From: an uncultured Solirubrobacterales bacterium
GTDB lineage: Bacteria; Actinomycetota; Thermoleophilia; Solirubrobacterales; JBBDJG01
Length of the DNA stretch: 64,000 nt
Direction of reading: 5' to 3'
Assembly: GCA_963762195.1 (NCBI GenBank)
Contig: CAVXJX010000012.1
Span: 127,044-191,043 of the forward strand
Each line of letters starts with the position of its first letter. The stretch's first letter is position 1. The notes below the pieces were generated by a model that searched no databases, had not been told where the DNA came from, and worked only from the letters and a program-made list of their open reading frames with translations. Both the position numbers and the translations under genes were made by a program. Below, piece after piece: positions 1-16,671 of this stretch.

Positions 1-298
1 GGAGGCCCTGCCTCCTCGCGGCGCTCGAAGCCAAGCTGCTCCAGGGAGCGTCGCGCCATGTGACGCAGCCAGGCCTCGGTCGCCGGGTCGCTCGCCAGCT
101 CGTAGAGGGGCATGACGCCGCTCTGGTCCCCGAGCTCCCCGAGTGCCTTCGCCGCCGCCCCCTGGACGGCCGGAGCCTCATCGCCCAGCGCTCGGATCAG
201 ATGCCGCGTGGCTCGCGGGTCGTGTGTCTCGCCGAGCGCACGCGCAGCCTCCTCGCGGATCCCGGGGTCATCCTCCGCGAGACGGACTGCAAGCTCTT
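1..298 (-). CDS. HEAT/PBS-lyase-like repeat protein (5' portion; runs off left edge; start codon unresolved)
   Basis: The minus-strand frame is open from ~302 to the window edge. It reads ...LAEDDPGIREEAARALGETHDPRATRHLIRALGDEAPAVQGAAAKALGELGDQSGVMPLYELASDP..., which are tandem HEAT-like repeats. It is absent from the ORF track because there is no stop in the window. No ATG/GTG is present near the 5' end. Confidence 0.4.
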
Positions 299-2157
299 CT
301 ACTTCAGCCGCTTCTCCAACTCCTCGAGCTGCTCGCGTAGCTCCTGCGGCAGGCGGTCGCCGAAGCGGGCGTAGTGCTCGTGGATCGTGGGCAGCTCCTG
401 GCGCATTCCGTCCGGGTCGACACGCAGCAACTCCGCCATGTCCTCGGGGCTAACGTCGAGTCCAGTCGTGTCGATGCCGCCGTCGGCGGGCACGAGCCCG
501 GCCGGCGTCTCGACAGCTTCGGCCGAGCCCTCGCAGCGACGGAAGATCCAGGCCAGCACGCGGCTGTTCTCGCCGAAGCCCGGCCACAGGAACTTCCCCT
601 CCTCGTCCTTGCGGAACCAGTTGACGTGGAAGAGCCTGGGCAGCTTGTCGGTGTTCCCCTCGCGACCGATCCGCAGCCAGTGCGCGAAGTAGTCGCCCAT
701 GTGGTAGCCGCAGAACGGCAGCATCGCGAACGGGTCGTAGCGCAGCTTGCCCGACGTCGCCTGATGCGGCGGCCGTGGTCTCGGACGACATGATCGATCC
801 CATGAAGACGCCGTGCTCCCAGTCGAACGCCTCGCGCACGAGCGGGACGTTCGTCGCGCGGCGCCCGCCGAACAGGATCGCGTCGATCGGCACGCCGGCC
901 GGGTCCTCCCATTCCTCGGCGATCGAGGGACACTGGCCCGCGGGAGTCGTGAAGCGCGCATTCGGATGTGCGGCCGGATGATCGGCGTCCGGCGTCCAGT
1001 CCTCACCGTGCCAGTCGATCAGCGTGCGCCGGCGGCTCCTTCGTCATGCCCTCCCACCAGATGTCACCGTCGTCGGTGCGCGCCGTGTTCGTGAAGATCG
1101 AGCACTTGCGGATCGTTGCCATCGCGTTCGGGTTCGTCTTCTCACCCGTGCCCGGAGCGACTCCGAAGAAACCCGCCTCCGGATTGATCGCGTAGAGGCG
1201 GCCGTCCGGGCCGAACTTCATCCACGCGATGTCGTCGCCGATCGTCTCGACCTTCCACCCCGGCAGTGTCGGGATCAGCATCGCGAGGTTTGTCTTGCCG
1301 CATGCCGACGGGAAGGCACCCGTGACGTACTTCGTGTCGCCTTCCGGCGAGGTGAGCTTCAGGATCAGCATGTGCTCGGCCATCCAGCCTTCGTCGCGCG
1401 CCATGATCGACGCGATCCGCAGCGCAAAGCACTTCTTCCCGAGCAGCGCGTTGCCGCCGTAGCCCGAGCCGTAGGACCAGATCTCGCGGCTCGCCGGGAA
1501 GTGCACGATGTACTTGTTCGTCTCGTCGCACGGCCACGGCACGTCCTCGCGCCCGTCCGCGAGGGGATAGCCGACGGAGTGCAGGCACGGCACGAACTCG
1601 CCGTCCTCGCCGAGCACCTCCAGCGCTCCCTTGCCCATGCGGGTCATGATCCGCATGCTGACCGCGACGTACGCCGAGTCTGTGATCTGCACGCCGATGT
1701 GTGCGATCGGAGAGCCCAGCGGGCCCATGGAGAACGGCACCACGTACATCGTGCGGCCCTGCATCGAGCCGCGGAAGAGGTCCTTGAGCGTCTCGCGCAT
1801 CTCGTCCGGATCGCGCCAGTTGTTGGTCGGGCCGGCGTCGGCCTCGCGCTCGGAGCAGATGAACGTGCGGTCCTCGACACGCGCCACATCGCCCGGATCG
1901 GAGCGGGCGAGATAGGAGCCCGGGCGCTTGGCGTCGGACAACGTCTCGAAGGTGCCCAGATCGACGAGCCGCTGACAGAGCGCGTCGTACTCCTCGCCGG
2001 TGCCGTCGCACCAGTGGATCTCGCTGGGCTGGGTCAGGGCCGCGACCTCCTCCACCCAGGCCTTCAGGCGCGAATTGTTCGTCGGGGCTTCCTGCTGCGT
2101 TGTCGCGGTGCTCTCACTCAAGAAAACAGGCTCCTTTGTTGCTGCTGAGGCGGCCAT
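299..2157 (-). pseudogene. pckG: phosphoenolpyruvate carboxykinase (GTP), two frame breaks
   Basis: Pieces in three frames (1003..2157, 450..893 frame, 299..1006 frame) join into one GTP-PEPCK. Motifs include ...[15 protein letters not shown]..., [32 protein letters not shown] and [26 protein letters not shown]. The breaks at ~1023 and ~750 are each repaired by deleting 1 nt. Confidence 0.9.
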
Positions 2158-2195
2158 TCTGCCGCATACACGTCGTTGATTGCGGAATCGGCGGG

Positions 2196-2717
2196 TCAGT
2201 CGCCGGGTGACCTGCGGGGAACCAGCACCGCGCGACGAAAGGTCGCGACGAGCTCGTTGCGCTGGTTGTAGACGTCGGTCCGAACCTTGACCACGCCCCT
2301 GTCGGGCTTCTTGGAGGTCCTCACCTCGAGTACCTCCGACTCCGCGTACAGGGTGTCCCCATGGAACACGGGTGCCGGGTGCGTCAGCTCCTCTGTGGCG
2401 AGGTTGGCGATCGCCTTGCCCGAGACGTCGGCGACCGACATGCCGAGCGCGAGCGAGTAGACCAGGGGGCCGACCACCACGTTCCTGCCCTGCTGTGACT
2501 GCGCGGCGTACACGTCGTTGAGGTGCAGCGGATGGTGGTTCATCGTGATCAGGCAGAACAGGTGGTCGTCCGCCTCGGTCACTGTCTTGGCCGGCCAGTG
2601 CTTGTAGACGGCGCCCTCCTCGAAGTCCTCGAGGTAGCGACCGTAGGGCCGCGCTCCCGAGGCCTCGCGCGAGGCCTGATCGAACGTCGTGCCCTGCTGC
2701 GTGTCCGTCTCTGCCAC
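2196..2717 (-). CDS. MaoC-family (R)-specific enoyl-CoA hydratase/dehydratase (hot-dog fold)
   Basis: Intact 173-aa ORF with ...[20 protein letters not shown]...[16 protein letters not shown]...[14 protein letters not shown]...GVVKVRT, typical of single-domain MaoC dehydratases. Confidence 0.8.
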
Positions 2718-2721
2718 TGGG

Positions 2722-3153
2722 TTAGAGCCTCCGTTTCTTGATCTTCTGCCGTTGCTCGTGGCGCTCTATGACCTTACCGATGAGCTTCAGGATGTCGTCT
2801 TGCCCGGCGACTCGCACGTATCCGTTCTCGTACGCGTCACGCCAGTGCTGCAGGCGCCCGTCCTTGGCCAGCTCGTTGAAATGCGAGCGCGGCGCGACCA
2901 CCATCACCTTCGCATCGCCGGCCGGATCCTTCTTGATGTCGATCTGCGGGAACTCGACCCGCCACGTCTGCGACTCGCGGCGCGCACGAAGGTCGAGGCG
3001 AATCACCAGACTCAGCTGCTTGAGCGCGGGAAGCTCGTCGAGAAAGCGCCGGGCTCCCTCCTCGATCAATTTCTGCGTGTCCGATGACACAGGGCCGGAA
3101 GGGTATCCGAGCCTCGGCGGACGCCACCGACTCGATCCGGCGATATCCTGCAC
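2722..3153 (-). CDS. hypothetical protein, weakly SCP2/lipid-carrier-like
   Basis: 143-aa ORF with a GTG start at 3153 and an alternative GTG at 3099. It lies 4 nt upstream of the MaoC gene. The C-tail is basic (ERHEQRQKIKKRRL). The family call is only a weak pattern impression. Confidence 0.4.
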   Translation of the reverse strand: MQDIAGSSRWRPPRLGYPSGPVSSDTQKLIEEGARRFLDELPALKQLSLVIRLDLRARRESQTWRVEFPQIDIKKDPAGDAKVMVVAPRSHFNELAKDGRLQHWRDAYENGYVRVAGQDDILKLIGKVIERHEQRQKIKKRRL

Positions 3154-3157
3154 CTAG

Positions 3158-3637
3158 ATGTTCAACAAGGAGAAGCGACAAGAAAAGCGCGAGCGGCGTG
3201 AGACCGTGAAGGCGGAGCTCAAGAGGCAGATCAAACCCCGCGAAACCTACTCGGAGCGTATGGCGGGGAAGGAAAAGAGCGAGCAGCGCAGGCCAACGAA
3301 GCCAGACGCCGGGGCGTCGCCAAGGCGCACCTGACCGCGCTCCACAGCGGGAATCCCAGCAAGGATGTGGTGCAGCTGGGCTCCGACCTGCTCTACCTCC
3401 CGGCGCTCTCGAACCTTCAGTTCCAGATCCAGGACCAGCTGACATCCAGTGAGAAGGTGCTACACTCGCTGGACGGTCTACGGCAAGCACGACAAGGAGT
3501 TCCTGGGAATGGCTCCGACCAACCGCGACGTTCAATTCAGCGGGGTATCGATCAGCTTGCTGACCGACGACGCGGTCACCCAGGAGGTCCACTTCTGGGA
3601 CATGGTGGCCCTGCTGCAGCAGATCCAGGCGCCCTAG
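3158..3637 (+). pseudogene. SnoaL/ester-cyclase-like protein with Lys/Arg/Glu-rich N-terminal segment, frame-broken
   Basis: ATG 3158 opens MFNKEKRQEKRERRETVKAELKRQ... (58 codons). The frame of ORF 3367.. gives ...HLTALHSGNPSKDVVQLGSDLLYLPALSNLQFQIQDQLTSSEKV. ORF 3449..3637 gives YTRWTVYGKHDKEFLGMAPTNRDVQFSGVSISLL...HFWDMVALLQQIQAP*. The break at ~3460 is repaired by deleting 1 nt. The join at ~3290 is uncertain. Confidence 0.45.
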
Positions 3638-3675
3638 AGTTGGGACGACCCGGTCGTGGGCTTACCCACGACCGG

Positions 3676-4885
3676 CTAGATCTTGTGGCGCTCCAGCAGC
3701 TTCTTGCCGATCACCATGCGCTGGATCTCGGAGGTGCCCTCACCGATCAGGAGCAGCGGCGCGTCGCGGTACAGGCGCTCGATCTCGTACTCCTTCGAGT
3801 AGCCGTAGCCACCGTGGATGCGGAAGGAGTCCTCGACGACCTCCTTGCCGGCCTCTGACGCGAAGAGCTTTGCCATGCCGGCCTCGACGTCGGAGCGCTG
3901 GCCCGCATCCTTCATGCGGGCCGCCTTGAAGGTCAGCAGGCGAGCGGCCTCGACCTTCGTCGCCATGTCCGCGAGCTTGAACTGGATCGCCTGGTGCTGG
4001 GCGATCGGCTTGCCGAAGGTCTTGCGCTCCTGGGAGTAGCGCAGCGCCAGCTCGAGCGCGCGCTGGGCGATGCCGACGCCGCGCGCCGCGACGTTCACGC
4101 GCCCGACCTCGAGCGCGTCCATCATCTGGCGGAAACCCTGTCCGAGCCCGGCCTCCTCCCCGCCGAGGATCCGGTCCGGCGAGCAGCGGTAGCCGTCGTA
4201 CACGAGCTCCGTGGACTCGACGCCCTTGTAGCCCATCTTCTTGATCTTGGGCGGGATCACCAGACCGGCGTAGTCCCCTGAGTTCTCGGCCGTCCCCGGC
4301 TCCTTCTCCGTGATGAAGCAGGTCATCCCCTTGTAGGGCGGGTCTGCCTTCGTGTCGTTCTTCATCAGCACGAACACGACGCCGGACAGCAGGCCGTTGG
4401 TGACCCACATCTTCTGGCCGTTCAGGACCCAGGCGTCGCCATCCTTGGTCGCGGTCGCCTTGATGCCCTGCACGTCGGAGCCGACCTCGGGCTCGGAGAG
4501 CGAGAAGGCAGCGCGCAGCTCACCGGTCGCCATCTTCGGCAGGAAGTGCTCCTTCTGCTCGTCGGTCCCGAACTTCATCAGCAGGTAGGAGCCGATGAAG
4601 TGGGTGTTGACGACGCCTGAGATCGAGATCCAGCCGCGCGAGAGCTCCTCGACGATCATCGCGTACGTCGTCAGGTCGAGCCCCATCCCGCCGTACTCCT
4701 CGGGGATCGTGACGCCGAACAGCCCGAGCTCCTTCATCTGCTCCACGATCGGCTCGGGGAACTCGTCCTCGTGGTCGTAGTGCTCGGCGTTCGGGAGGAT
4801 CTCCTTGTCGACGAAGCTGCGCACCATCTCGGTGATCGCGCTTCTGCTCGTCGGTTCTGTCCAGAAGCTCGGGGGCTACGGCCAT
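3676..4885 (-). pseudogene. acyl-CoA dehydrogenase, one 5'-proximal frame break
   Basis: The 383-aa ORF is a typical ACAD (...LSEPEVGSDV...WVTNG...IHGGYGYSKEYEIERLYRDA...). The expected N-terminus [15 protein letters not shown](A)ITEMVRSF is split between the 4885 frame and the 4827 frame. Deleting 1 nt at ~4841 restores it. Confidence 0.85.
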
Positions 4886-4936
4886 CTCGTTGACTCCCTA
4901 ATCGGTTTCGGTGCCAGAAGGATATCCTTCGCCGCC

Positions 4937-5986
4937 ATGCGCAACCCGCGGGACTTCTTCCAGCCCCTCGCCGTCGGCGCGCCGGACCCGATCATCGAGA
5001 TCCCGTTCCGGCCGTCGCGGATGATCCATTTCTTCGACGCCTCCAACGAGAAGATGGCGGCGAAGGTGCCGGACATGGCCAAGCAGGCGGACATCCTGCT
5101 CGGCAACCTCGAGGACGCGGTGCCGGTCGACCGCAAGATCCCGGCACGGGAGGGCCTGATCCGCGTCGGCAAGGCGGTCGACTTCGGCGACACGCAGCTG
5201 TGGACCCGGGTCAACAGCCTCGACAGCCCCTGGGTGCTCGACGACCTCACGCAGCTCGTCACCGAGATCGGCGACAAGCTCGACGTGATCATGATTCCGA
5301 AGGTCGAGGGGCCGTGGGACATCCACTACGTGGACCGGCTGCTCGCGCAGCTCGAGGCCAAGGCCGGCCTCCAGAAGCCGCTCCTGGTCCACGCGATCCT
5401 CGAGACCTCGCTGGGCGTCGTGAACCTCGAGGAGATCGCCACCGCCAGCCCGCGCATGCAGGGCATGAGCTTCGGTCCCGCCGACCTGGCCGCGTCGCGG
5501 CGGATGAAGACGACGCGCGTCGGCGGCGGCCACCCCGGCTACCGCGTGATCGAGGATCCCGACCCGGACAACCCCGACGCGCCGCGCGCGACCGCGCAGC
5601 AGGACCCGTGGCACTACTCGATCGCGCGCATGGTCGACGCATGCACGTCGGCCGGCATCCTGCCCTTCTACGGGCCCTATGGCGACATCAAGGACGTGCA
5701 AGGCTGCGAGACGCAGTTTCGCGCGGCCTTCCTGCTCGGCTGCGTCGGCGCCTGGTCGCTGCACCCGGTCCAGATCGAGATCGCGAAGAAGGTCTTCAGC
5801 CCGCCGGCCGACGAGGTCAAGTTCGCGAAGAAGGTGCTGGAGGCGATCCCCGACGGCGCCGGCGTGCACATGATCGACGGCAAGATGCAGGACGACGCCA
5901 CCTGGAAGCAGTGCAAGGTGATGGTCTCGCTGGCGGAGATGCTTGCGAAGAAGGACCCGGAGCTGGCAGAGGCGTACGAGCTTTGA
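4937..5986 (+). CDS. mcl: L-malyl-CoA/beta-methylmalyl-CoA (citramalyl-CoA) lyase-type HpcH/CitE-family lyase
   Basis: ATG 4937 gives 349 aa: [19 protein letters not shown]...LGNLEDAVP...[14 protein letters not shown]...[21 protein letters not shown]...DPWHY...[10 protein letters not shown]...[14 protein letters not shown]. Length and motifs match the long Mcl type recalled from Chloroflexus/Rhodobacter. The 44 upstream codons of ORF 4805 lack family signal. Confidence 0.8.
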
Positions 5987-7185
5987 GGTTCTTCGAGTAC
6001 GAAGCACGCGAGATCGTCAAGCGCGCCGGGATCCCGGTGACGAAGTACGGCTTCGCCCAGACGGCCGACGAGGCGCGGAAGATCGCCGAGGACATCGGCG
6101 GCCCGACCGTGATCAAGTCCCAGGTTCTGACGGGTGGGCGCATGAAGGCCGGCGGCGTGAAGTTCGCCGACACACCCGATGAGGCGGCCGCGCACGCCGA
6201 GGACATCCTCAAGCTCGAGATCAACGGCCACATGCCGCGCGGCGTGCTCGTCGACCCGAAGGCGCAGCTCAAGCAGGAGTACTACGCCGGTGTCGTGTGG
6301 GACGGCGTCCGCAAGAAGCCCGCGATGCTCTTCAGCGACATGGGCGGCATCGACATCGAGGAGGTCAACGAGCAGCACCCCGATCGCGTCGGGCGCGCGC
6401 ACCTCTCGAACCTGGTCGAGGCCCCGGACTTCCGTGCGAAGGAGGTCATCGCCCAGACCGGCGTGACCGGGCGCCAGCTGACCCGCGCGACTCCGATCCT
6501 GGCGCGCCTGGCGCGCCTGTTCAGCGAATACGACATGACGCTCGCCGAGATCAATCCGCTCGGCGAGCTCGAGGACGGCAGCTTCGTCGCTCTCGACGCG
6601 CACATGGAGATGGAGAACGAGGCACGGCCCCGCCAGAAGGCACTGCTGAAGGAGCTCGGTGTCGGCGACGAGGAGACACGCGAGGCCCGCGAGGCCACCC
6701 CGTTCGAGATCGCCGGTGAGGAGGTCGACGCCATGGACCATCGCGGCGTGGCCGGCAACGTGACGGAGTTCGACGGCAACCTCGGCCTCGTGATCGGCGC
6801 CGGCGGCGGGAGCCTCACCCTGTTCGACGCGGTGCGCAAGTACGGCGGCAAGCCCGCCAACTACTGCGAGATCGGCGGCAACCCGTCCGTCGCCAAGGCA
6901 GCGGGACTCGCGAAGCTCGTGCTCTCGAAGCCCGGCGTGGACAAGATCGCCGTGATGATGAGCATCGTGTCCAACACGCGTGTCGACATCGTCGCGCGCG
7001 GCGTCGTGAAAGCGTGCCTCGAGCTCGGGTTCGATCCTGCGGAGAAGATCGCGATCTTCCGCATCCCCGGCGCGTGGGAGGACGAGGGCTTCAAGATTTT
7101 GGAGAAGTACGGTGTGGAGTACTGCGACCGCTCCGTTTCGATGCACGAAGCGGCGCGGCGGGCTGTGGAGAAGATTCCGGCGTGA
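5983..7185 (+). CDS. ADP-forming acyl-CoA ligase, ATP-grasp beta subunit (ACL/citryl-CoA-synthetase-like rather than canonical SucC)
   Basis: TTG 5983 overlaps the mcl stop (TTGA). Motifs: [18 protein letters not shown]..., [61 protein letters not shown]. The first ~260 codons of ORF 5200..7185 are an out-of-frame shadow of mcl. Confidence 0.8.
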
Positions 7186-7188
7186 GCT

Positions 7189-7232
7189 ACGCGGTTCGCA
7201 GTTACGCAGTTACGCAGTTACGCAGTTCGCAG
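7189..7232. repeat. 8-bp tandem repeat (CGCAGTTA x3 perfect, flanked by degenerate copies) in the inter-subunit spacer
   Basis: The sequence reads acgcggtt cgcagtta cgcagtta cgcagtta cgcagttc gcaggtgc. It lies between the beta-subunit stop (7185) and the alpha-subunit GTG (7244). Confidence 0.85.
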
Positions 7233-7243
7233 GTGCGTGCTTC

Positions 7244-8167
7244 GTGAGCATTCTCATCGATGCGAACACCACCTTCATCGTGCAGGGCATTACTGGGCGT
7301 GAGGCCGTGAACCTCACTCGCGAGTGCCTCGACTACGGTGCGGGGGCGAAGGTCGTGGGCGGGGTCACTCCTGGGCGCAAGGGGCGCGACGTGCACGGCG
7401 TGCCGGTGTTCGACACCGTCGAGCAGGCCGTCGAGCACCACGGTGCGCCGATTCAGGGATCCGTCGTCACGGTCCCCCCCGCCTTCACCAAGGACGCGGT
7501 CTTCGAAGCGCTCGAGCACGGCATCGAGCTGATCGTGATCGTCACGGAGCGAATCCCGCGGCGCGACGTCGCGCAGATGGTGGAGCTCGCATCGCAGAAG
7601 GATGCCCGCATCATCGGCCCCAACTGCCTCGGCGTGATCGTGCCGGACGTGGTCAAGATGGGCGGAATCGGCGGGCCCGCCAAGGACGCGGCCAAGGCCT
7701 ACACGCCAGGATCCGTGGGAGTGATGTCGCGCAGCGGCGGGATGACGACCGAGATCTCGAGCACGCTCACCGCCGCCGGGCTCGGCCAGTCCACGGCCGT
7801 GTCGATCGGCGGCGACGCGATCATCGGCTCCACCTACACCGAGCTGATGCCGCAGTTCGAGGCCGACGAGCAGACGCAGGCAATCGTGATCTACACCGAG
7901 CCGGGCGGACGCATGGAGGCCGAGCTTGCAGAGTACGTGACCGCGACCTCCAGCCGCCTCCCGATCGTCGCGTTCATGGCCGGCAAGTTCATGGACGAGA
8001 TGCCCGGGATGAGCTTCGGGCATGCGGGCACGATCGTCGAGGGCAAGGCCGACACGGCCACCGAGAAGATCGCGCGCCTGCGCGAGGCGGGTATCGCCGT
8101 GGCGGAAGAGATCGCCGAGATCCCCGGCCTCGTGAAGGACCGGCTCGGACAGCAGGTCGCCTCGTGA
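7244..8167 (+). CDS. ADP-forming acyl-CoA ligase, CoA-binding alpha subunit (SucD/ACL family)
   Basis: GTG 7244 gives VSILIDANTTFIVQGITGREA...GGVTPGRKG...IGPNCLGVI...SRSGGMTTE...IGGD...MSFGHAGTIV (phosphohistidine loop). 307 aa. Confidence 0.85.
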   Translation: MSILIDANTTFIVQGITGREAVNLTRECLDYGAGAKVVGGVTPGRKGRDVHGVPVFDTVEQAVEHHGAPIQGSVVTVPPAFTKDAVFEALEHGIELIVIVTERIPRRDVAQMVELASQKDARIIGPNCLGVIVPDVVKMGGIGGPAKDAAKAYTPGSVGVMSRSGGMTTEISSTLTAAGLGQSTAVSIGGDAIIGSTYTELMPQFEADEQTQAIVIYTEPGGRMEAELAEYVTATSSRLPIVAFMAGKFMDEMPGMSFGHAGTIVEGKADTATEKIARLREAGIAVAEEIAEIPGLVKDRLGQQVAS

Positions 8168-8400
8168 GCACCGCCGCGCTCACGTCGCTGTTCATCGACG
8201 TCGAGGTCGACGACGCGGTCGCCAGCGATCCTGAGCTTGCGCGCAAGCTGACCGAGGTGTGCCCGGTGGACATCTATGCGCAGAACGACGACGGGACACT
8301 GAGGATCGTCGAGGAGAACCTCGACGAATGCGTGCTCTGCTACCTGTGCGTGGAAGCCGCGCCCGAGGGGACAGTCCGCATCATCAAGAAATACGAGTAG
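8164..8400 (+). CDS. small ferredoxin-like protein (single Cys cluster motif)
   Basis: GTG 8164 overlaps the alpha-subunit stop (GTGA). 78 aa with ...EVCPVDIY...ECVLCYLCVEAAPEG..., i.e. CxxCxxC plus a remote CP. The rest of ORF 7324..8400 is shadow. Confidence 0.55.
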   Translation: MSTAALTSLFIDVEVDDAVASDPELARKLTEVCPVDIYAQNDDGTLRIVEENLDECVLCYLCVEAAPEGTVRIIKKYE

Positions 8401-8405
8401 CTGCG

Positions 8406-9503
8406 ATGCGCGCGCTCGTGCGTGATGCGATGAGCCGGGACTCCCCGCAGCTGAGGGCCGAGACGAGCGTCGTCGAGGCAGCGGCACTGCTGTGGGCGAA
8501 GGGCTGGATGCCGATCCCCGTGATCGAGACGGATGACCGGGTCGCGGGCGCGCTGTCGAGCAACGACATCGTGCGCGCTGTCGCCCAGAGGCTGGACCTC
8601 GAGCGAACCCCGGTCGGCCGGATCGCCACCACCGAGCTTCCACAGGTCGGACCCGACGACCCCCTCGCGGACGGGGCGGCGGCCATGGCGACGACGGGCC
8701 AGGCGATCGTACTGGTGATCGAGGACTCGCGGCTCGTCGGTGTCCTGACCCACACCGACCTGGAAGGGCGTGAGCTGATCGCTGCGACGCTGGGCCCCGT
8801 GGGTGCGCAGGTGATCACGGAGATCTCGCCCAACGACATCATGTATGCCGGCAGCTGGGGTGCGTACGCATACGCCGGGGTGACCGCGGTGCAGTGCATC
8901 CGCGAGGTGCTCGCCAAGCTCGATCGCCCGGATCCGTCCAGCATCCTCGACCTCCCGTGCGGACACGGACGGGAGCTGCGCTTCCTGCAGGTCGCTTACC
9001 CGGACGCGAGCATGGCGGCTTGCGACATCGACGAGGACGGCGTCGAGTTCTGCGCACGCGTCTTCGGAGCGCATCCGATCGTCTCGCACGAGGATCCGGA
9101 CGAGGTGTCCTTCGACCGGCGCTACGAGCTCGCCTGGTCCGGATCGCTGTTCACTCACCTGTCCGGCGATCGATGGCCAGGGTTCCTCGAGCTGTTCGCG
9201 CGCTCGCTCGTGCCCGGCGGGCTCGTGCTCTTTACAGCGAACGGTTTCCTGCCGGCGGAAATGCTGCGCAACCTTGGGCTCAGCCCCGACGATGTGGACC
9301 GGCTGCTGGACGACTTCAAGCGCACGCACTTCGGGTACGTGGACGTGGGTGACGGCAGCTGGGGCCTCTCGCTCGCGCGGCCGCGCTGGGTGAAGGAGCA
9401 GATCGAACGCTCGCCACTCGAGCTCGTGTCATACGAGCGCGGGGCATGGAAACCGCCGGTTCCCGCTCAGGACGTGCTGGTCTGCACCCTGCCGGCATCG
9501 TGA
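8406..9503 (+). CDS. CBS-pair domain fused to class I SAM-dependent methyltransferase
   Basis: ATG 8406. The N-terminal ~130 aa form two CBS-like units (...VVEAAALLWAKGWMPIPVIE..., ...QAIVLVIEDSRLVGVLTHTDL). The C-terminal part carries ILDLPCGHGRELRFL...DID...LVPGGLVLF, a Rossmann methyltransferase motif I/post-I pattern. Confidence 0.7.
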   Translation: MRALVRDAMSRDSPQLRAETSVVEAAALLWAKGWMPIPVIETDDRVAGALSSNDIVRAVAQRLDLERTPVGRIATTELPQVGPDDPLADGAAAMATTGQAIVLVIEDSRLVGVLTHTDLEGRELIAATLGPVGAQVITEISPNDIMYAGSWGAYAYAGVTAVQCIREVLAKLDRPDPSSILDLPCGHGRELRFLQVAYPDASMAACDIDEDGVEFCARVFGAHPIVSHEDPDEVSFDRRYELAWSGSLFTHLSGDRWPGFLELFARSLVPGGLVLFTANGFLPAEMLRNLGLSPDDVDRLLDDFKRTHFGYVDVGDGSWGLSLARPRWVKEQIERSPLELVSYERGAWKPPVPAQDVLVCTLPAS

Positions 9504-11033
9504 GCCGCTCCGCGGGCGGCTTCAACTTCGTGTTGGACGTAGTCGAGCGTCACGCACGCGAGCGACCCTCCGACGAGGCGCTGCGCGCGATCGCGGCGTG
9601 ACGGCTCCGTGCGCTCCTACACGTATGCGGACGTCGCGCGAAACGCCGCCGAGGCGGCGGCAGGACTCGCGCAGGCCGAAGTGAGCCGCGGCAAGGTCGT
9701 GATGACGCTGATGGGAGCGCGTCCCGAATGGGTCTTTGCGATGCTCGGGGCGTGGCGCCTGGGAGCCGTCGTGCTGCCCTGCTCCGAGCAGTTGCGCGCG
9801 AAGGACATCGCCCTGCGGCTGGAGCGCACCACGCCGGTCGTCGTGCTGGCGGCGGGAGCCGACTTGGCGGAGCTCGAGCGCGCGGCGCACGATGCAGAGC
9901 ACTCGCCTCGTCTGATCGACGTCGATGCCGACGGGCTGCCCTCGGGAGATCTCGTCGGCAATGTTGCCGACACCCAGGCGATCGACGCGGCGCTCGTGAT
10001 CTTCACCTCCGGGACGGCCGGCGAGCCGCGCGGTGTGGTTCACACCCAGGGGTATCTACGCGGACAGTCGGTGCAGGCTCAACACTGGTTGGGGCCGCGC
10101 GCGGGCGAGCTCTCGTGGTGCACCGCCGCGAGCGGATGGTCCAAGTCCGCCCGCAACGCATTCGTCGCGCCGTGGACCGCCGGCGCCGCCTGCCTGCTTC
10201 ACGACGCCCGCTTCGATCCGGAAGAGCGTCTGGCGATCGTCGCCGAGCACGACGTCGCCGTGCTCTGCCAGTCGCCGACCGAGTACCGCATGATCGCCAA
10301 ACGGGCCTCGCTCGCCGCCGGCCGGCCGGCGGCGCTGCGACGTCTCGTGTCCGCCGGCGAACCACTCAACCCGGAGGTGATGCAGGTCTTCCGGTCCGGG
10401 ATGGACCTCGACATCCACGACGGCTACGGGCAGACGGAGACGGGTCAGCTGACGGGCATGCCCACAGGCGAGCGGGTGCGGCCCGGCTCGATGGGCAGGC
10501 CGCTGCCGGGATTCGGCCTCGAGGTCGTCGACCAAGACGGGCGGCCGGCAGACGAAGGTGAGCTGTGCCTCGATCCGCAGAGCGTCCCGACGTTCTTCCG
10601 CGGGTACCTGGGCGAGCCGCCGTTCGCCGATACTCGCTGGCGGACGGGAGATCGGGTGCGGCGCGACCCGGACGGCTTTCTGTGGTTCGAGGGCCGGCTC
10701 GACGACGTGATCCTGTCCGCGGGCTACCGGATCGGCCCCTTCGAGGTCGAGTCCGCACTACTCGAGCACCCGGCGGTCGCGGAGGCGGCGGCCGTGGCGG
10801 CGCCTGATGCCGAGCGCGGCGCGGTGGTCGAGGCGGTCATCGTCCTGCGCCCGGGGAAGACGGGAGACGACCGTCTTGTCCGCGAGTTACAGGAGCACGT
10901 CAAGCAATCAACCGCTCCGTACAAGTACCCGCGCGTCGTGCGATTCGTCGACGAGCTCCCCAAGACACCCAGCGGGAAGATCAAGCGGGCCGAGCTGCGT
11001 CTGCTGAACGGCGAGTCGGATATCGACCGCTAG
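9500..11033 (+). pseudogene. AMP-forming acyl-CoA synthetase (adenylate-forming ligase), one frame break
   Basis: GTG 9500 overlaps the previous stop (GTGA) and gives MSRSAGGFNFVLDVVERHARERPSDEALRAIAA, then TGA. Deleting the t at ~9599 joins it to DGSVRSYTYADV... of ORF 9609..11033. Family motifs: IFTSGTAGEPRGV, DGYGQTETG, PKTPSGKIKR. Confidence 0.85.
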
Positions 11034-11068
11034 GCTTGACGTCCTGTCGGGGTTCCACGGGAGGTTCT

Positions 11069-12467
11069 ATGACAATCGAAAGTCACGGGCACCGTGCCCG
11101 CGCCTGAGATCGACCGTCGCCGCGTGGCGGAGCTCACCGCGCAGCAGCGCGAGCTCTTCGCCGAGCGCACCCCAAACTCCGGCGCGTACTTCGAACGCGC
11201 GCGCAAGGTGATGCCGAAGGGCGTGCCCTCCTCCTTCCAGGAGAACGACCCGTGGCCCGTCTACATCGAGCGCGGCAGCGGCGCGCAGGTCTGGGACGTC
11301 GACGGCAACGAGTACATCGACTTCCACAACGGCTTCGGCGTGATGTGCATCGGTCACGCGAACCCCCAGGTCGCAGAAGCCGTCAAGCGGCGTGTCGAGC
11401 TCGGCACCCACTTCGCCGCGCCGACCGAGGGCTCGATCGGCGTCGCCGAGGAGCTGCGCCGGCGTTTCGGCCTGCCGCAGTGGCGCTTCACGAACTCGGG
11501 CACCGAGTCCACGATGGACGGGATCCACATCGCGCGGGGCGCGACCGGGCGGGACATGATCCTCAAGATCGAGGGCTCCTACCACGGGCACCACGACGCC
11601 GTGATGGTGTCCGTCTACCCCTCGCTCGAGGAGCTCGGCGACCGTGAAGACCCGGTCAGCGTCCCGTACGGCGCGGGATACCCGCGCGCGATCACGGAGC
11701 TCACGCGGTCCGTTCCGTTCAACGATGCGGCAGGCGCTGGCGAGCGTGCTGACGCGGCTCGATGGCCAGGTCGCAGCGCTGATCATGGAGCCCGCCATGA
11801 TGAACATCAACATCGTGCCGCCGATCGACGGCTACCTCGACGGACGTGCGTCGGATCACCGCCGAGCACGGCGTGATCCTGATCTTCGACGAGGTCAAGA
11901 CCGGTGCGACGATCTCGCCGGGCGGTGCGACGCAGCGCTTCGGCGTCAGTCCCGACATGGTGGCGCTCGCGAAGGCCAGCTGCGGCGGGCTTCCCGGCGG
12001 TGCGATCGGCATGACGGATGAGCTTGCGGCGGTCGTCGCGGACGGCACCGTCCACCAGTACGGGACGTTCAACGGCAACCCCCTGGTGATGGCGGCCGCG
12101 CACGCGGCCCTGACGGAGGTCTTGACCGACGCCGCGTACGAGCGCCTCGAGTCCATCAACGACCAGCTGCGCCGCGGCTGCGACGAGATCATCGCCCGGC
12201 ACGGGCTCCCCTGCTACACCGAAGGCATCGGTGCCAAGGGCTGTGTGGTCTTCGCCTCGGAGCCGCTGCGCGAGTACCGCGACTACCTCACGAAGGTCGA
12301 CGACGACCTGTCCACGCTCGCATGGCTCTACCACATGAACCACGGCATCTTCATGACGCCCGGCGTCGAGGAGGAGTGGACGCTCTCGATCGCCCACACG
12401 GAGGACGCACGTGCAGCGCTATCTCGACGCGTTCGAGACGTTTGCCGCAGACCTGATGGGGAACTAG
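11069..12467 (+). pseudogene. class III PLP aminotransferase (glutamate-1-semialdehyde aminomutase-like), four frame breaks
   Basis: RBS GGGAGG plus ATG 11069. The segments ...GNEYIDFHNGFGVMCIGHANP..., ...TNSGTESTMDGIHIARG..., ...ALIMEPAMMNINIV..., ...ILIFDEVKTGATI...(Lys), ...YGTFNGNPL... and ...[19 protein letters not shown] are spread over frames 2>0>1>2>0. Breaks lie at ~11092, ~11730, ~11845 and ~12407, and each is a +1 step. Confidence 0.85.
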
Positions 12468-12477
12468 CCCTAGGGCT

Positions 12478-14477
<2,000 letters not shown>

Positions 14478-14481
<4 letters not shown>

Positions 14482-15230
14482 AGCTCGGCGACCTCGAGGT
14501 CAACCGCATCGGGCTCGGAGCGCGGTTCGTGCAGGACGCCGAGCACGCGGGCCCGCTGCTGCGGCGTGCGCTCGAGCTCGGGGTCAACCTGATCGACACG
14601 GCCGACGTGTACGGCAACAGCGAAAGCGCGATCGCCGGCGCACTGCATCCGTACCCCGAGGGGCTCGTGATCGCGACCAAGGGCGGCCAGACATTGGTTG
14701 ACGGCCAGCCGACCGGCGACGGCAGGCCCGAGTATCTGCGGGAGGCCTGCGAGCGCAGCCTCCAACGCCTACGCGTCGACACCATCGACCTGTACCAGCT
14801 GCACATGCCCGACCCCGAGGTTCCGATCGAGGAGTCGGTTGGCGCGCTCGAGGCGCTGCGCACCGAGGGCAAGATCCGCCACATCGGCGTGTCGAACGTG
14901 TTCGGCGACGCGCTCGAGGCCGCGCTGCGCACCGCGCCCGTCGTGTCGGTGCAGAACCGCTACAGCCTCATGCACCGCGAACGTGACGTCGAGATCGAGA
15001 TCTGCGAGCGCGAGGGAATGGCCTTCATGCCGTGGTGGCCGCTGGCCGGGGGCGAGCTTGCCGTCCTGGGCCCGCAGCGCGCGCTGGCGTGGCTCTTGCT
15101 GCGGTCCCCGGCGATGCTCCCCATCCCGGGGACGGCGTCGATCGAGCACCTCGAGGAGAACGTCGCGGCCGCCGCGACGCGCCTCACCCCGGAGGAAGTC
15201 GCAGAGCTGGAGGCAGCCGCCGCAGGCTGA
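14478..15230 (+). CDS. aldo/keto reductase
   Basis: ATG 14478 overlaps the previous stop (ATGA). Motifs: ...[12 protein letters not shown]...LVIATKGG...[13 protein letters not shown]...IRHIGVSN...[14 protein letters not shown]. 250 aa. Confidence 0.85.
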
Positions 15231-15315: not shown

Positions 15316-16671
15316 CTACAGGACCGGCAGGTACTTCTCGATCTCCCAGGTGGAGAGCTGCGTGCGGTAGTCGTCCCACTCCTGGCGCTTGATCTCGACG
15401 AAGCGCGTGAACACGTGCTCGCCAAGCGTCTTGAGGATCAGCTCCGACTCCGAGGCGATCTCGATCGCCTCACCGAGCGTCTCGGGCAACTGCTCGATGC
15501 CGAGCTTCTTGCGCTCGTCGGGCGACAGGTGGTACAGGTTCCGCTCCATCGGCTCGGGCAGCTCGTAGCCCTTCTCGATGCCCTCGAGACCCGCCTGCAG
15601 AAGTGCCGAGAAGCACAGGTACGGGATTGCAGGCCGGATCCGGGCTGCGAATCTCGCAGCGCGTCGCCTGCTCCTTGCCGGGGTGGTAGAGCGGCACCCG
15701 GATCAGGGCCGAGCGGTTGCGCCGTGACCACGCGACGTACACCGGCGCCTCGTAACCGGGCACCAGGCGCTTGTAGGAGTTGACCCACTGCGCGAACAGC
15801 GCCGAGATCTCGCGTGCGTGCTTGAGCTGCCCGGCGATGAACGACTTCGCGACATCGGACAGGTAGAACTGGTCGTTCTCGTCATAGAACGCGTTGCGAC
15901 CGCCTCTTGAACAGGGACTGGTGCACGTGCATGCCCGACCCGTTCTCGCCGTACAGCGGCTTTGGCATGAAGGTCGCGTAGAAGCCGTACTTCATCGCGT
16001 ACTCCTTCACGGTGATGCGGTACGTCATGCAGTCGTCGCACATCTTCAGCGCGTCCGCGAAGCGCATGTCGACCTCGTGCTGCGACGGGCCGACCTCGTG
16101 GTGGCAGTACTCGACGTGGATGCCGAGCTGCTCCAGCGCGAGCACCGTCTCGCGGCGCAGGTCCGAGCCGGCGTCGAGCGTCGTGAGGTCGAAGTAGCCG
16201 CCCTTGTCGAGCACCTGCGGCGGGCCGCCGCCGGTCTCGGCGGAGCGGAAGTAGAAGTACTCGAGCTCCGGCCCGATGTAGAAGTCGTCGAAGCCCATCC
16301 CCCGCATGCGCTCGAGCGACCGGCGCATCACCCACCGCGGGTCGCCCTCGTAGGGCTCGCCGCCGGGCACCTGCACGTCGCAGAACATGCGGCCGGTCGC
16401 CTTGTCCTCGGGCCGCCAGGGCAGGATGTCGAATGTGGACGGGTCCGGCATCGCGATCATGTCGGACTCCTCGATCGGGTTGAAGCCGGTGATCGACGAG
16501 CCGTCGAAGCCCATGCCGCCCTCGAAGGCGTCTTCCAGCTCCGGCCCTGTTGATGGAGAAGCTCTTGAGCTGGCCCAGGATGTCGGTGAACCAGAGGCGG
16601 ATGAAGCGGACGTCGCGCTCGTCGCAGATTGCGGCTACGTCCTCAGGCGTCTTGGGGGCTTTCTCTGCCAA
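15316..16671 (-). pseudogene. glnA: glutamine synthetase type I, three frame breaks
   Basis: RBS GGAGGA plus TTG 16671. Motifs: MAEKAPKTPEDV...VRFIRLWFTDILGQLKSFSIN | ELEDAFEGGMGFDGSSI...ELEYFYF...HHEVGPSQHE...NGSGMHVHQSLFK | GRNAFYDE...NSYKRLVPGYEAPVYVAWS.RNRSALIRVP... | YLCFSALLQAGLEGI... Breaks at ~16548, ~15905 and ~15622 are each repaired by deleting 1 nt. Confidence 0.9.

Follow-up and report, generated by a model that had tools for sequence, protein, structure and literature searches.

Among the genes of an uncultured Solirubrobacterales soil bacterium, an Mcl-type acyl-CoA lyase gene is followed by genes for a two-subunit acid-CoA ligase and a small ferredoxin-like protein, raising the question of which acid the ligase activates and whether the lyase splits the product. 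In the following, the window refers to the whole stretch of 64,000 nt that was analysed.

Gene content of the locus

The plus-strand genes mcl (4937–5986; 349 aa), ligB (5983–7185; 400 aa), ligA (7244–8167; 307 aa) and a gene for a 78-aa ferredoxin-fold protein (8164–8400) form one operon (4937–8400). All genes named in the original prediction were located at, or a few bases from, the positions it had assigned to them, and both gene overlaps it described were found in the sequence. At 5981–5986 (cTTTGA), the TTG start codon of ligB (5983–5985) overlaps the mcl stop codon TGA (5984–5986), and at 8164–8167 (GTGA), the GTG start of the ferredoxin-like gene (8164–8166) overlaps the ligA stop codon TGA (8165–8167), coupling the two translationally. 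ligA itself starts with GTG at 7244, preceded by a 58-bp spacer.

Upstream of the operon, the minus strand encodes an acyl-CoA dehydrogenase (ACAD; 3676–4885, ~404 aa), a small, weakly SCP2-like protein (2722–3093), a single-domain MaoC hydratase (2196–2717, 173 aa) and a GTP-dependent PEP carboxykinase (PEPCK; 299–2157); this gene set had been predicted, but its order is corrected here. The ACAD start codon ATG at 4885 is not in frame with the gene body, which affects the first ~13 codons. Using the related locus L093 in tblastn searches, the SCP2-like gene was delimited to 123 instead of 143 aa, with a weak SCP2 assignment (Pfam, 17 bits vs. a cut-off of 21.3; profile search of the PDB, SCP2-like-2, E = 0.0014). 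The intact PEPCK of L093 (Pfam PEPCK_N/PEPCK_GTP) matched the window in three frames, indicating two frameshifts in the present copy.

Mcl harbors a Pfam HpcH_HpaI domain (96.7 bits) and aligned over its full length to the MCL structures 4L7Z/4L80 of C. aurantiacus (519.7 bits) and to 6KIN (510.7 bits) in a PDB search, sharing 66% identity with C. aurantiacus MCL over 342 aligned residues. The Chloroflexus enzyme is a trifunctional malyl-/β-methylmalyl-/citramalyl-CoA lyase characterised by biochemistry and structure, and lyases of this type both form and cleave malyl-CoA (PMC3832036). Mcl was hence annotated as an MCLC (C. aurantiacus-type) L-malyl-CoA/β-methylmalyl-CoA/(S)-citramalyl-CoA lyase; the enzyme it resembles is known for these CoA esters and not for citryl-CoA. 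The MaoC protein exceeded the Pfam cut-offs for MaoC_dehydratas (63.6 bits) and MC_hydratase (59.3 bits) and matched Chloroflexus Mch (4E3E; 91.7 bits) and β-methylmalyl-CoA dehydratase (8HGN; 91.5 bits) in the PDB, while scoring 121 bits against NCBIfam RipB_Ich (cut-off 340). It thus resembles one half of mesaconyl-CoA hydratase (Mch) and is also related to itaconyl-CoA hydratase (RipB/Ich).

A ligase clade apart from SucC

Pfam matches to ATP-grasp_2 (169.7 bits) and, weakly, to Citrate_bind and Citrate_synth_N identified LigB as the ATP-grasp (β/large) subunit of an NDP-forming acyl-CoA synthetase, and the domains CoA_binding, Ligase_CoA and Succ_CoA_lig marked LigA as the CoA-binding/phosphohistidine (α/small) subunit. 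The catalytic histidine of LigA lies within FGHAGT, whose GHAG aligns to MGHAGA of succinyl-CoA synthetase (SCS) α. In the PDB, LigB best matched T. aquaticus SCSβ (194.8 bits), followed by CcsA of H. thermophilus (159.6 bits), and LigA matched archaeal SCSα (233.9 bits) and CcsB (188.1 bits). Neither subunit reached the curated NCBIfam cut-offs for SucC (LigB, 259 bits vs. 370) or SucD (LigA, 285 bits vs. 336). Databases name the LigB family differently: it is a succinyl-CoA synthetase at JGI, and a citryl-CoA synthetase large subunit under KEGG-style labels.

The LigB motif reported in the original prediction, [20 protein letters not shown]...[13 protein letters not shown], is exact. It differs from canonical SucC representatives (NGAGL(A/V)M...PANFLDxGGGA), whereas its glycine loops are of the type found in CcsA/AclB (GGGGS/GGGAS...GGNP/SGDP), so the proposed resemblance of the substrate-side loops to citryl-CoA synthetase (CCS) and ATP-citrate lyase (ACL) holds in the motif alignment. 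The LigB clade carries the signature GxxGLxIGxGGxSLT / [11 protein letters not shown] / NV(V/L)(S/N)NTR, and every one of the succinate-side loops NGAG, GGGA and FGGI is replaced in it. At the position of VRRGGP in the Ccs/Acl clade, its members have FR(I/V/L)PG. The second arginine of VRRGGP, common to CcsA, AclB and seven related representatives, is absent from the whole LigB clade; Sun et al. in 2010 reportedly linked this residue to the third carboxylate of citrate.

In the tree, the LigB clade was monophyletic in 96/100 bootstraps and split from the 21 SucC comparison sequences in 100/100, never grouping with them. It also stands apart from the Ccs/Acl clade, itself supported in 93/100. 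With both subunits below the curated cut-offs and a clade of its own, the ligase is not an orthodox SucCD within the range of sequences compared, as had been surmised. Canonical sucCD genes, named so by PGAP, are present in Thermoleophilia metagenome-assembled genomes (MAGs), with no ferredoxin gene after them.

Synteny within and beyond Solirubrobacterales

The arrangement is no chance juxtaposition, being found again at 80 loci in genomes and at 35 closely related loci in metagenomes. The 80 genome loci all stem from Solirubrobacterales, so that common descent may account for part of their synteny. mcl was found upstream of the ligase genes in 54 of 56 genome loci, at a distance of ≤150 bp in 17. 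The proposed coupling of lyase and ligase therefore stands with respect to gene order, but often not contiguity: in 28 of the 54 genomes, mcl and ligB were >1.5 kb apart and separated by unrelated genes, e.g. an Rrf2 regulator and an ABC transporter, or other regulators and an aminotransferase. The ferredoxin gene followed ligA in 69/69 genome loci, and the two overlapped by 4 nt or 1 nt in 67/78. Further upstream, maoC was divergent from mcl in 45/58 genomes and PEPCK adjoined maoC in 41/80 genome loci, with many of the remaining loci offering too little flank. Among Solirubrobacterales, the mcl-ligase-ferredoxin neighbourhood is thus kept. In line with the suspicion that this arrangement was new, no description of it was found in the literature searched.

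Among the metagenome loci, the ferredoxin gene was present in 23/23 members of the close group and in 12/14 of the middle group, where Mcl- or CitE-type lyases were encoded nearby. In the distant loci, by contrast, a ferredoxin-like gene was found in two of ten and missing in eight, implying that the ligase as such does not require an Fe-S protein. The predicted triad of lyase, ligase and Fe-S protein is hence a conserved feature of Solirubrobacterales, but not universal in the wider clade.

A CitE-type lyase gene lay directly 3′ of ligA in 7 of 13 loci of the distant group. Individual cassettes read ligB-ligA-fdx followed by proteins above the NCBIfam citryl-CoA lyase cut-offs (L081, L087), class I fumarase/mesaconase-type genes and then ligB-ligA-fdx-citE (L085), citE-ligB-ligA-fdx (L088), ligB-ligA-fdx-citE (L089), or ligB-ligA-fdx beside a full-length Mch/Ich-like hydratase (L090). 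The L087 cassette is divergent from genes for methylaspartate mutase and methylaspartate ammonia-lyase, enzymes that together lead to mesaconate. A marine Dehalococcoidia member encodes ligB without cassette partners, among housekeeping genes. The operonic association with CoA-ester lyases in distant relatives makes a ‘thiokinase plus lyase’ module the general theme.

The 78-aa protein contains four cysteines (C33, with proline next, C56, C59 and C62) that are invariant in its relatives. Its Pfam matches to Fer4/Fer4_9 were weak; relatives in L087 and L088 retain eight cysteines and score above the Fer4 cut-offs. Foldseek assigned the AF2 model (pLDDT 79.8) to the ferredoxin fold, with the Fe-S domain of RNAP subunit D as the top match. 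The best reading is an accessory protein with a single predicted [4Fe-4S] site, which would be made in step with LigA and may form a physical complex with the ligase. As the chemistry proposed below has no electron-requiring step, electron transfer is a less likely function than structural support, tethering or redox sensing.

Candidate substrates and competing routes

We favor, with a probability of roughly 60%, a reversible thiokinase that uses ATP to activate a C4/C5 (hydroxy)dicarboxylate and feeds Mcl, with MaoC as hydratase and an Fe-S accessory. LigBA would be an acid-CoA ligase of two subunits that works through a phosphohistidine and forms ADP (GDP), paralogous to succinyl-CoA synthetase and related to citryl-CoA synthetase. 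The acid it converts to a thioester is most likely a C4/C5 dicarboxylate, and not succinate or citrate. From gene neighbours and sequence motifs, we infer (S)-citramalate, mesaconate, itaconate and (S)-malate as candidates. The Chloroflexus-type Mcl would cleave the resulting CoA ester, directly or once hydrated by the divergently encoded MaoC, to acetyl-CoA and pyruvate (C5 route), propionyl-CoA and glyoxylate (β-methylmalyl route), or acetyl-CoA and glyoxylate (malate route). Flux may run in this direction; as the LigBA and Mcl reactions are both reversible, the pair could also join acetyl-CoA and glyoxylate, with ATP being regained when malate is released.

A narrow malate thiokinase/malyl-CoA lyase, with LigBA interconverting (S)-malate and (S)-malyl-CoA, and Mcl malyl-CoA and acetyl-CoA plus glyoxylate, is a special case of this reading that competes with its C5-dicarboxylate version, and a tentative possibility. 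Physiologically, it might provide serine-cycle-like cleavage, or an ATP-conserving malate synthase substitute giving the neighbouring PEPCK oxaloacetate. The formation and cleavage of malyl-CoA by this type of lyase, the persistence of PEPCK beside maoC-mcl in Solirubrobacterales loci with enough flank, and the missing citrate-type arginine are consistent with it, and the known serine-cycle arrangement likewise places an SCS-like ligase together with malyl-CoA lyase. However, LigB scored only 187.6 bits against the NCBIfam malate-CoA ligase β model (cut-off 604), below its SucC score, the conserved MaoC hydratase would have no role in a malate-only route, and the neighbours in distant relatives are methylaspartate mutase/ammonia-lyase, class I fumarase/mesaconase and Mch-like genes, not C1/glycolate genes.

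It is rather unlikely that the ligase is a divergent housekeeping SucCD of the TCA cycle, adjacent to mcl and maoC by coincidence, with the ferredoxin serving a 2-oxoglutarate:ferredoxin oxidoreductase encoded elsewhere. Although SCS subunits were the top PDB and NCBIfam matches, JGI annotates the family accordingly, the Dehalococcoidia homologue sits among housekeeping genes and mcl is often several kb distant, this reading conflicts with the sub-cut-off scores of both subunits against the equivalog models, the replacement of all three succinate-side loops, the invariable split from SucC, the orthodox sucCD of Thermoleophilia MAGs, and the lyase genes adjoining the ligase across very distant clade members.

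The full closed pathway, as originally envisaged, likewise appears improbable. In it, LigBA would activate a saturated dicarboxylate, e.g. methylsuccinate or succinate, for successive oxidation, hydration and cleavage by ACAD, MaoC and Mcl. The four enzyme classes do lie within 6 kb here, and ACAD, which contains all four ACAD Pfam domains, has P. denitrificans methylsuccinyl-CoA dehydrogenase (MCD) as its second-best PDB match (302.6 bits), sharing an insertion of ~10 residues and the equivalent of Arg-421. Yet the best match was the generic FadE3 of M. smegmatis (395.5 bits), and Arg-421 is the only one retained of the three carboxylate-binding arginines of MCD: Thr stands in place of Arg-252, whose mutation inactivates MCD (PMC5798300), and Lys in place of Arg-376. 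Moreover, the ACAD gene travels with its constant partner, the SCP2-like (lipid-binding type) gene, and this pair is linked to the cassette only loosely, occurring ≤8 kb away in 27/80 genomes, in varying orientation and at differing positions, downstream of the ferredoxin gene in 21 loci and between maoC and mcl in five; ACAD of this type was found in none of the distant ligase-lyase contexts examined.

A split ATP-citrate lyase analogue, in which a true citryl-CoA synthetase and a CitE-family lyase replacing Ccl would convert citrate via citryl-CoA to acetyl-CoA and oxaloacetate, is very improbable since the whole LigB clade lacks the second arginine of VRRGGP and stands apart from Ccs/Acl, and the lyase is 66% identical to an enzyme for malyl-/methylmalyl-/citramalyl-CoA, despite CCS/ACL-like glycine loops, CcsA as second PDB match, the citryl-CoA lyase scores in L081 and L087 and the KEGG-style label.

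The observation behind the original prediction is thus confirmed and its interpretation partly supported. Modules of the ‘thiokinase plus CoA-ester lyase’ kind make up a widespread family, as yet uncharacterised, of which the operon is a member. Soil Thermoleophilia carry the cassette very commonly, and its probable function is to activate a C4/C5 dicarboxylic acid and split it.

Organisation of the cassette and its surroundings

Four plus-strand genes make up the cassette: mcl (4937–5986), encoding a 349-aa lyase of the HpcH/CitE superfamily; ligB (5983–7185) and ligA (7244–8167), encoding the ATP-grasp subunit (400 aa) and the CoA-binding subunit (307 aa) of a putative NDP-forming acid-CoA ligase, LigBA; and fdx (8164–8400), encoding a small Cys-containing protein of 78 aa. 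Both gene overlaps in the original prediction were confirmed, with TTG and TGA sharing bases at 5983–5986 and GTG and TGA at 8164–8167. Going away from mcl on the minus strand are an acyl-CoA dehydrogenase gene (ACAD, 3676–4885), a gene for a weakly SCP2-like protein of 123 aa (2722–3093), one for a single-domain MaoC hydratase (2196–2717) and a GTP-PEPCK gene spread over three frames (299–2157). The remainder of the window holds housekeeping and pentose-phosphate genes. Among the window genes examined, there was no CoA-transferase, second sucCD, mct or meh, and an Rfam search of positions 1–12000 returned zero structured RNAs.

The G+C content was 64–76% per 2-kb block (66–72% in most), and the nearest relatives, among the matches listed, were metagenome-assembled genomes of Solirubrobacterales, Thermoleophilaceae and Conexibacter. 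Disrupted genes were located at 299–2157 (−), 4845–4885 (−; the opening codons of the ACAD, out of frame), 11094–12400 (+), 15316–16514 (−) and 20126–21529 (−); a class III aminotransferase was broken into two ORFs, and glutamine synthetase and aconitase were seen only as fragments. Fragmentation of so many genes suggests indel errors of long-read assembly rather than pseudogenes or biology.

Several further features were observed in the window. The 58-bp spacer between ligB and ligA contains 5.9 copies of the octamer TACGCAGT (7188–7232), which occurs at this single site in the window and was not found in 95 related loci; in close relatives, ligB and ligA abut or overlap. The ~590-bp gap between the ACAD and SCP2-like genes (3090–3676) was considered as a repeat or mobile element, which was ruled out, as the space is occupied by a frameshifted, SnoaL/ester-cyclase-like gene remnant at 3150–3640 (+). 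Its translation, from which the family was read by eye, ends in ...GKHDKEFLGMAPTNRDVQFSGVSISLLTDDAVTQEVHFWDMVALLQQIQAP, and the remnant is common only to the window and its nearest relative, L001 (72% nucleotide identity). Five nucleotides past the fdx stop codon starts a CBS-domain pair fused to a SAM-dependent methyltransferase (8406–9503, +), found in the window and L001 only, so that it has probably joined the operon recently. It is followed by an AMP-forming acyl-CoA synthetase (9609–11033, +), whose top NCBIfam match was the branched short-chain acyl-CoA synthetase MbcS (411 bits vs. a cut-off of 850); homologues of ≥50% identity lie downstream of the cassette in ~15 of 80 genome loci, often past the ACAD/SCP2 pair. 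Farther away, a 338-aa protein (43225–44241, −) gave eight matches to RTX calcium-binding nonapeptide repeats (176.7 bits), which seems unusual in an actinobacterial genome.

Enzyme classes of the encoded proteins

A PDB search aligned residues 5–348 of Mcl to residues 6–347 of 4L7Z (519.7 bits), so that both the N-terminal end and the C-terminal lid domain are covered, and the Roseiflexus orthologue of the Chloroflexus lyase matched end-to-end (510.7 bits). Mcl is 66% identical to the trifunctional malyl-CoA/β-methylmalyl-CoA/(S)-citramalyl-CoA lyase of Chloroflexus aurantiacus (crystal structures 4L7Z/4L80), while Rhodobacter/Methylobacterium-type (MCLR) enzymes scored 209 and 199 bits, and CitE, CLYBL and RipC at most 85 bits. 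This pattern places Mcl in the MCLC cluster of malyl-CoA lyases defined by Zarzycki and Kerfeld (PMC3832036).

The neighbouring MaoC protein scored above the Pfam cut-offs for the MaoC and mesaconyl-CoA-hydratase models and matched one half of Chloroflexus mesaconyl-CoA hydratase (Mch; 4E3E, 8HGN) with ~92 bits. Its top NCBIfam match was the itaconyl-CoA hydratase RipB/Ich (121.3 vs. a cut-off of 340 bits), and Mcl scored 130.2 against the RipC/Ccl cut-off of 375. Mcl and MaoC are both predicted to be competent for C5 substrates. [quoted passage not shown] The SCP2-like protein remained below the Pfam cut-off (17.4 vs. 21.3 bits); 4 of its 16 homologues matched weakly, a PDB profile search gave SCP2-like-2 at E=0.0014, and a single-sequence AF2 model reached a pLDDT of 45.

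Domain content (Pfam ATP-grasp_2 in LigB at 169.7 bits; CoA_binding, Ligase_CoA and Succ_CoA_lig likewise found in the ligase) and the phosphohistidine motif GHAG, retained in LigA as FGHAGT aligned with MGHAGA of SCSα, assign LigBA to the NDP-forming acyl-CoA synthetase superfamily. Within that superfamily, it fell below every NCBIfam cut-off compared: LigB scored 259.2 bits against the SucC equivalog NF001913 (cut-off 370) and 187.6 against the malate-CoA ligase β model NF010647 (cut-off 604), and LigA 285.4 against the SucD equivalog NF004230 (cut-off 336). The best PDB matches of LigB were Thermus aquaticus SCSβ (194.8 bits) and CcsA, the large subunit of citryl-CoA synthetase (CCS) of Hydrogenobacter thermophilus (159.6), followed by E. 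coli SucC (143) and Chlorobium AclB (74); that of LigA was an archaeal SCSα (233.9).

An exhaustive search across 1.84 billion cluster representatives retrieved full-length LigB relatives graded at 78, 66, 52 and ~42% identity, below which sequences of 34–37% identity carried canonical SucC motifs. The window LigB and 17 representatives have three motifs in common, G-x-(L/I/V)-(G/A/S)-L-x-(I/M)-G-x-G-G-x-S-L, (P/A)(A/F)(N/D)Y(C/S)E(I/V)GGNP and N(V/I)(V/L/Y)(S/N)N(T/S)(R/Q), the last reading SIVSNTR in the window. In T. aquaticus SCS and in nine representatives of SucC, the loops instead read NGAGL(A/V)M, PANFLDxGGGA and FGGI(T/S)R (FGGITRCD), none of which was found in the window LigB by alignment. 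Aligned with CcsA (6HXQ_B) and AclB (6HXJ_A), whose loops read GGGGS/GGGAS, GGNP/SGDP and ANNT/ANFT, LigB has the CCS/ACL-type loops GGGxS, (G/S)G(N/D)P and N(N/F)T. In a neighbour-joining tree (100 bootstraps; references CcsA, AclB and Thermus SCS; SucC set of 21 sequences), the LigB clade appeared in 96/100 replicates, the Ccs/Acl clade in 93/100 and a split between the LigB clade and the SucC set in 100/100; LigB, SucC, Ccs/Acl and 'YTExGGNP' clades were distinguished, the branching order among them not being settled. The suspicion that the ligase is not an orthodox SucCD was thus borne out by sub-cut-off scores, replaced loops and, in the phylogeny run for the β subunit, a position in a clade of its own outside SucC.

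One position sets the clade apart from citrate-converting relatives. The motif VRR(G/A/N)G(P/Q), with its second Arg, was present in 9/9 Ccs/Acl sequences, and this Arg was absent from 18/18 LigB-clade representatives, which read FR(I/V/L)PG or R(S/T)(A/S)G (FRIPGA in the window) and in this resemble R(L/V)xGT of SucC. We take the second Arg of VRR(G/N/A)GP to be the equivalent of Arg-379 of human ACLY. This residue reportedly contacts a citrate carboxylate, as Sun et al. are said to have found in 2010. If that role is correct, the absence of the Arg would point to a dicarboxylate, not citrate, as the substrate of the LigB clade.

Orthodox enzymes do occur in the class. P0252, which has canonical SucC motifs and is 35% identical to LigB, represents a family named 'ADP-forming succinate--CoA ligase subunit beta [Thermoleophilia bacterium]' or Miltoncostaeaceae at NCBI; at one such Thermoleophilia locus, sucC and sucD adjoin methylmalonyl-CoA mutase and propionyl-CoA carboxylase genes, with neither a ferredoxin nor a lyase gene present. 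Canonical sucC was not found in any related locus collected before that one, and two contigs of the same length (31,443 bp), one with canonical sucC and the other with ligB, turned out to be distinct. The presence of an orthodox SCS in the class suggests that the cassette may be a paralogous second system.

Conservation, lyase partners and the ferredoxin-like protein

At least 584 species-representative genomes contained the cassette in a genome scan, and its ligase was also among thousands of metagenome proteins. The best 80 of these ≥584 loci, used for synteny, were all from Solirubrobacterales/Thermoleophilia, with LigB 81–95% identical to that of the window. Among them, fdx followed ligA in 69/69 assessable loci and mcl was encoded upstream in the same orientation in 54/56 (within 150 bp in 17, within 1.5 kb in 9 and farther away in 28), so that the predicted conservation of the mcl-ligase-ferredoxin triad held in relatives. 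The overlap of the ligA stop with the fdx start measured 4 nt in 54/78 loci and 1 nt in 13/78. Still within the best 80 loci, maoC was divergent from mcl in 45/58, and PEPCK lay beyond maoC wherever the flank was long enough. The ACAD/SCP2 pair was placed downstream of fdx in 21 loci and, like in the window, between maoC and mcl in five. Its variable position, together with the loss of most of the Arg triad, renders ACAD membership in the module doubtful, and with it the originally proposed closed chemistry of dehydrogenation, hydration and cleavage, as the gene pair is mobile and one of three carboxylate-binding residues is kept.

The interval between mcl and ligB was considered as a site of conserved pathway genes, which was rejected because the inserts vary by genome and look unrelated. 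Many Solirubrobacterales genomes have an insert of ~4.3 kb here (L058, 3616–8000; L014, 2584–7753), comprising in L058 an Rrf2-family regulator and a sulfate/molybdate-type ABC transporter (an ATPase with TOBE domain and two permeases) and in L014 LuxR-AAA and SARP regulators and a class V aminotransferase; another insert type encodes a small exported protein.

Among more distant relatives, we inspected representatives with LigB of 41–52% identity. In L081 and L087, ligB-ligA-fdx (73 and 75 aa, respectively) precedes ccl, the products of which scored above the NCBIfam cut-offs for citryl-CoA lyase; the L087 operon is divergent from the genes of two mesaconate-forming enzymes, glutamate (methylaspartate) mutase and methylaspartate ammonia-lyase. 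A citE gene takes the place of ccl after fdx in L085 (69 aa), where class I fumarase/mesaconase-type α and β genes come first, and in L089 (82 aa), precedes ligB-ligA-fdx in L088 and lies 4 kb upstream in L086, which is devoid of fdx. L090 encodes a full-length Mch/Ich-like hydratase near ligB-ligA-fdx, and a marine Dehalococcoidia member has ligB alone amid housekeeping genes. Scanning metagenomes with aligned distant members added 80 loci, binned by LigB identity to the window. At ≥74% identity (35 loci), fdx followed ligA in 23/23 and Mcl was encoded in 21 loci; at 60–73% (32 loci), the corresponding figures were 12/14 for fdx, with Mcl-type lyases in 7 and CitE-like lyases in 7; and below 60% (13 loci), fdx followed ligA in 2/10 and a CitE-type gene stood right behind ligA in 7. 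Across these groups, the steady partner of the ligase clade is thus a CoA-ester C–C lyase, drawn from three families. All assessable loci of the window's group have the ferredoxin-like gene; in the next group it is frequent, and farther out it is patchy.

Two side observations concern gene order in these loci. In L100, L108, L117 and L144 (metagenome; LigB 65–68% identical), ligA is found 0.9–6 kb downstream of ligB, and genes have accordingly been inserted between the subunit genes. In L095 (clade B), a 'YTExGGNP'-clade ligase is part of a one-strand run of genes (6387–14619) encoding glycolate-oxidase-like FAD/Fe-S proteins, an OTCase-like protein, an amidohydrolase, methylaspartate ammonia-lyase and a single-chain ACD-type NDP-forming acyl-CoA synthetase, then a small Fer4 protein. 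It may be more generally the case that a small ferredoxin follows an NDP-forming acyl-CoA synthetase.

The 78-aa protein itself scored below the Pfam cut-offs (Fer4 17.3 vs. 21.1, Fer4_9 17.4 vs. 27 bits). The Cys of its CxxCxxC motif with a distal CP (C56-x2-C59-x2-C62 and C33-P34) are conserved without exception across five divergent homologues; of 72 close copies, 70 contain exactly four Cys residues. The AF2 model (pLDDT 79.8) adopts a ferredoxin fold and retrieved ferredoxin domains only in Foldseek, with the Fe-S domain of archaeal RNA polymerase subunit D as the best, if weak, match (E=2.8e-3, TM 0.60), followed by FwdG, PsaC and Pyrococcus ferredoxin with weak E-values and TM ~0.6. The model and the Cys pattern together predict one [4Fe-4S] site. 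The homologues in L087 and L088 still have the full eight Cys of a ferredoxin with two clusters and score above the Fer4 cut-offs (L087: Fer4 43, Fer4_7 39.2 bits), and those in L085 and L090 have five, indicating that the family descended from a 2×[4Fe-4S] ferredoxin with the loss of one site. Given that the chemistry involves no redox step, that translational coupling is tight and that in four contexts the gene separates ligA from the lyase gene, we infer that the protein might be a structural or regulatory subunit.

Candidate substrates and relation to described systems

The best-supported reading of the cassette is a thiokinase-lyase module for a C4/C5 dicarboxylate. LigBA would make, or reversibly consume, the CoA ester of this acid, Mcl would split or form that ester, and MaoC would act as the hydratase if the acid is unsaturated. 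Genomic context points to branched C5 acids (citramalate, mesaconate, itaconate), given the methylaspartate-pathway genes at L087, the mesaconase-type fumarase at L085 and Mch/Ich-type hydratases at L090 and in the window. Activation of itaconate by enzymes of the succinyl-CoA synthetase type is established biochemistry. As in the Ict-Ich-Ccl (RipABC) pathway, a MaoC-type hydratase and a CitE-superfamily lyase, here with RipB/Ich and RipC/Ccl as top NCBIfam matches, would lead to acetyl-CoA and pyruvate; however, both scores are far under cut-off, the lyase is of the MCLC type, and an ATP-dependent ligase replaces the family III CoA-transferase (RipA/Ict), which was not found among the window genes examined. 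The glyoxylate half of the Chloroflexus 3-hydroxypropionate bi-cycle (Mcl, Mch, Mct, Meh, SmtAB) resembles the module in its lyase and in the Mch half matched by MaoC, but Mct, Meh and SmtAB were not found among the window genes examined, the hydratase is single-domain, and activation by a thiokinase is proposed. Partial gene sets of this bi-cycle in Actinobacteriota have been ascribed to organic acid assimilation (PMC9802188).

Malate is a serious alternative. In MtkAB and MclA of serine-cycle methylotrophs, an SCS-like ligase is likewise genetically linked to a malyl-CoA lyase. Malate is a plausible substrate of the window ligase, too, either in an Mtk-like route or, in reverse, in an ATP-conserving malate synthase feeding PEPCK. 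Unlike that system, the window has an MCLC instead of an MCLR lyase, a ligase β score of 187.6 of the 604 required, an added Fe-S protein and no C1-pathway genes near the cassette.

A true CCS acting on citrate is less likely. In CcsAB and Ccl of H. thermophilus (6HXQ), too, a two-subunit NDP-forming ligase is served by a separate lyase that cleaves its product; the LigB loops GGGxS, GGNP and NNT(R)(I/V)D match, and two members of the LigB clade (L081, L087) precede citryl-CoA lyase proteins. LigB is, however, only 33% identical to its counterpart and belongs to another clade, in which the second Arg of VRRGGP is absent, and the window lyase is of the CitE/MCL superfamily, while Ccl has a citrate-synthase fold. 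Moreover, we know of no extra ferredoxin-fold gene for CcsAB. Of the originally proposed split ATP-citrate-lyase analogue, the resemblance in loops therefore stands, whereas citrate as substrate has become less likely with the missing Arg. Housekeeping succinyl-CoA synthesis, too, is less likely: fold, subunit organisation, phosphohistidine motif and the best PDB matches of both subunits are those of SucCD, but LigB is 35–37% identical to SucC, scores under the cut-off in a separate clade with the NGAGLAM, GGGA and FGGITRCD loops replaced, and is accompanied by lyases, and the class has an orthodox SCS, the canonical Thermoleophilia sucCD being free of ferredoxin and lyase neighbours.

The literature search, as far as it reached, agrees with the original claim that the arrangement had not been described. 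It returned no account of this ligase clade or its pairing with Mcl, CitE or Ccl lyases, no ferredoxin-like subunit of any NDP-forming acyl-CoA synthetase, no citramalyl-CoA synthetase and no link between Thermoleophilia and these enzymes; for itaconate-, mesaconate- or citramalate-CoA ligases, it yielded only 'malyl-CoA synthetase' in engineering papers and a speculative Arcobacter genome note.

We also considered a more far-reaching reading, which we regard as unlikely, in which ligB-ligA-fdx encodes a three-subunit thiokinase with a degenerate one-cluster ferredoxin as stoichiometric subunit. The latter would tether the ligase to the lyase encoded next to it, as an ACL-like channelling complex of separate parts, or make the enzyme sensitive to redox state or O2. 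The clade would then comprise non-citrate 'CCS/CCL-type' systems for C4/C5 hydroxy-dicarboxylates, in which one lyase partner has been exchanged for another of non-homologous fold (citrate-synthase-type Ccl, CitE, MCL), and could provide the abundant soil Thermoleophilia with an ATP-conserving malate/citramalate synthase-thiokinase route. If true, this would bear on the evolutionary assembly of ATP-citrate lyase.

By sequence, LigB and its relatives constitute a clade of the SCS/CCS/ACL superfamily that is new and widespread, has an unusual accessory protein and is served by interchangeable lyases. Few actinobacteria are as common in soil as Thermoleophilia/Solirubrobacterales, and current annotations as 'succinyl-CoA synthetase', 'ATP-grasp domain protein', 'acetate-CoA ligase family' or 'citryl-CoA synthetase' can lead metabolic reconstructions to predict the TCA or reverse TCA cycle too often. 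Should the cassette encode a C4/C5 dicarboxylate thiokinase feeding Mcl, it would represent an ATP-dependent alternative to the CoA-transferases of itaconate, methylaspartate and 3-hydroxypropionate metabolism and a natural counterpart of engineered malate-thiokinase/malyl-CoA-lyase shunts. It would also add an Fe-S accessory subunit, to our knowledge without precedent, to this enzyme superfamily, and reveal non-citrate relatives of CCS/CCL relevant to the origin of ATP-citrate lyase.
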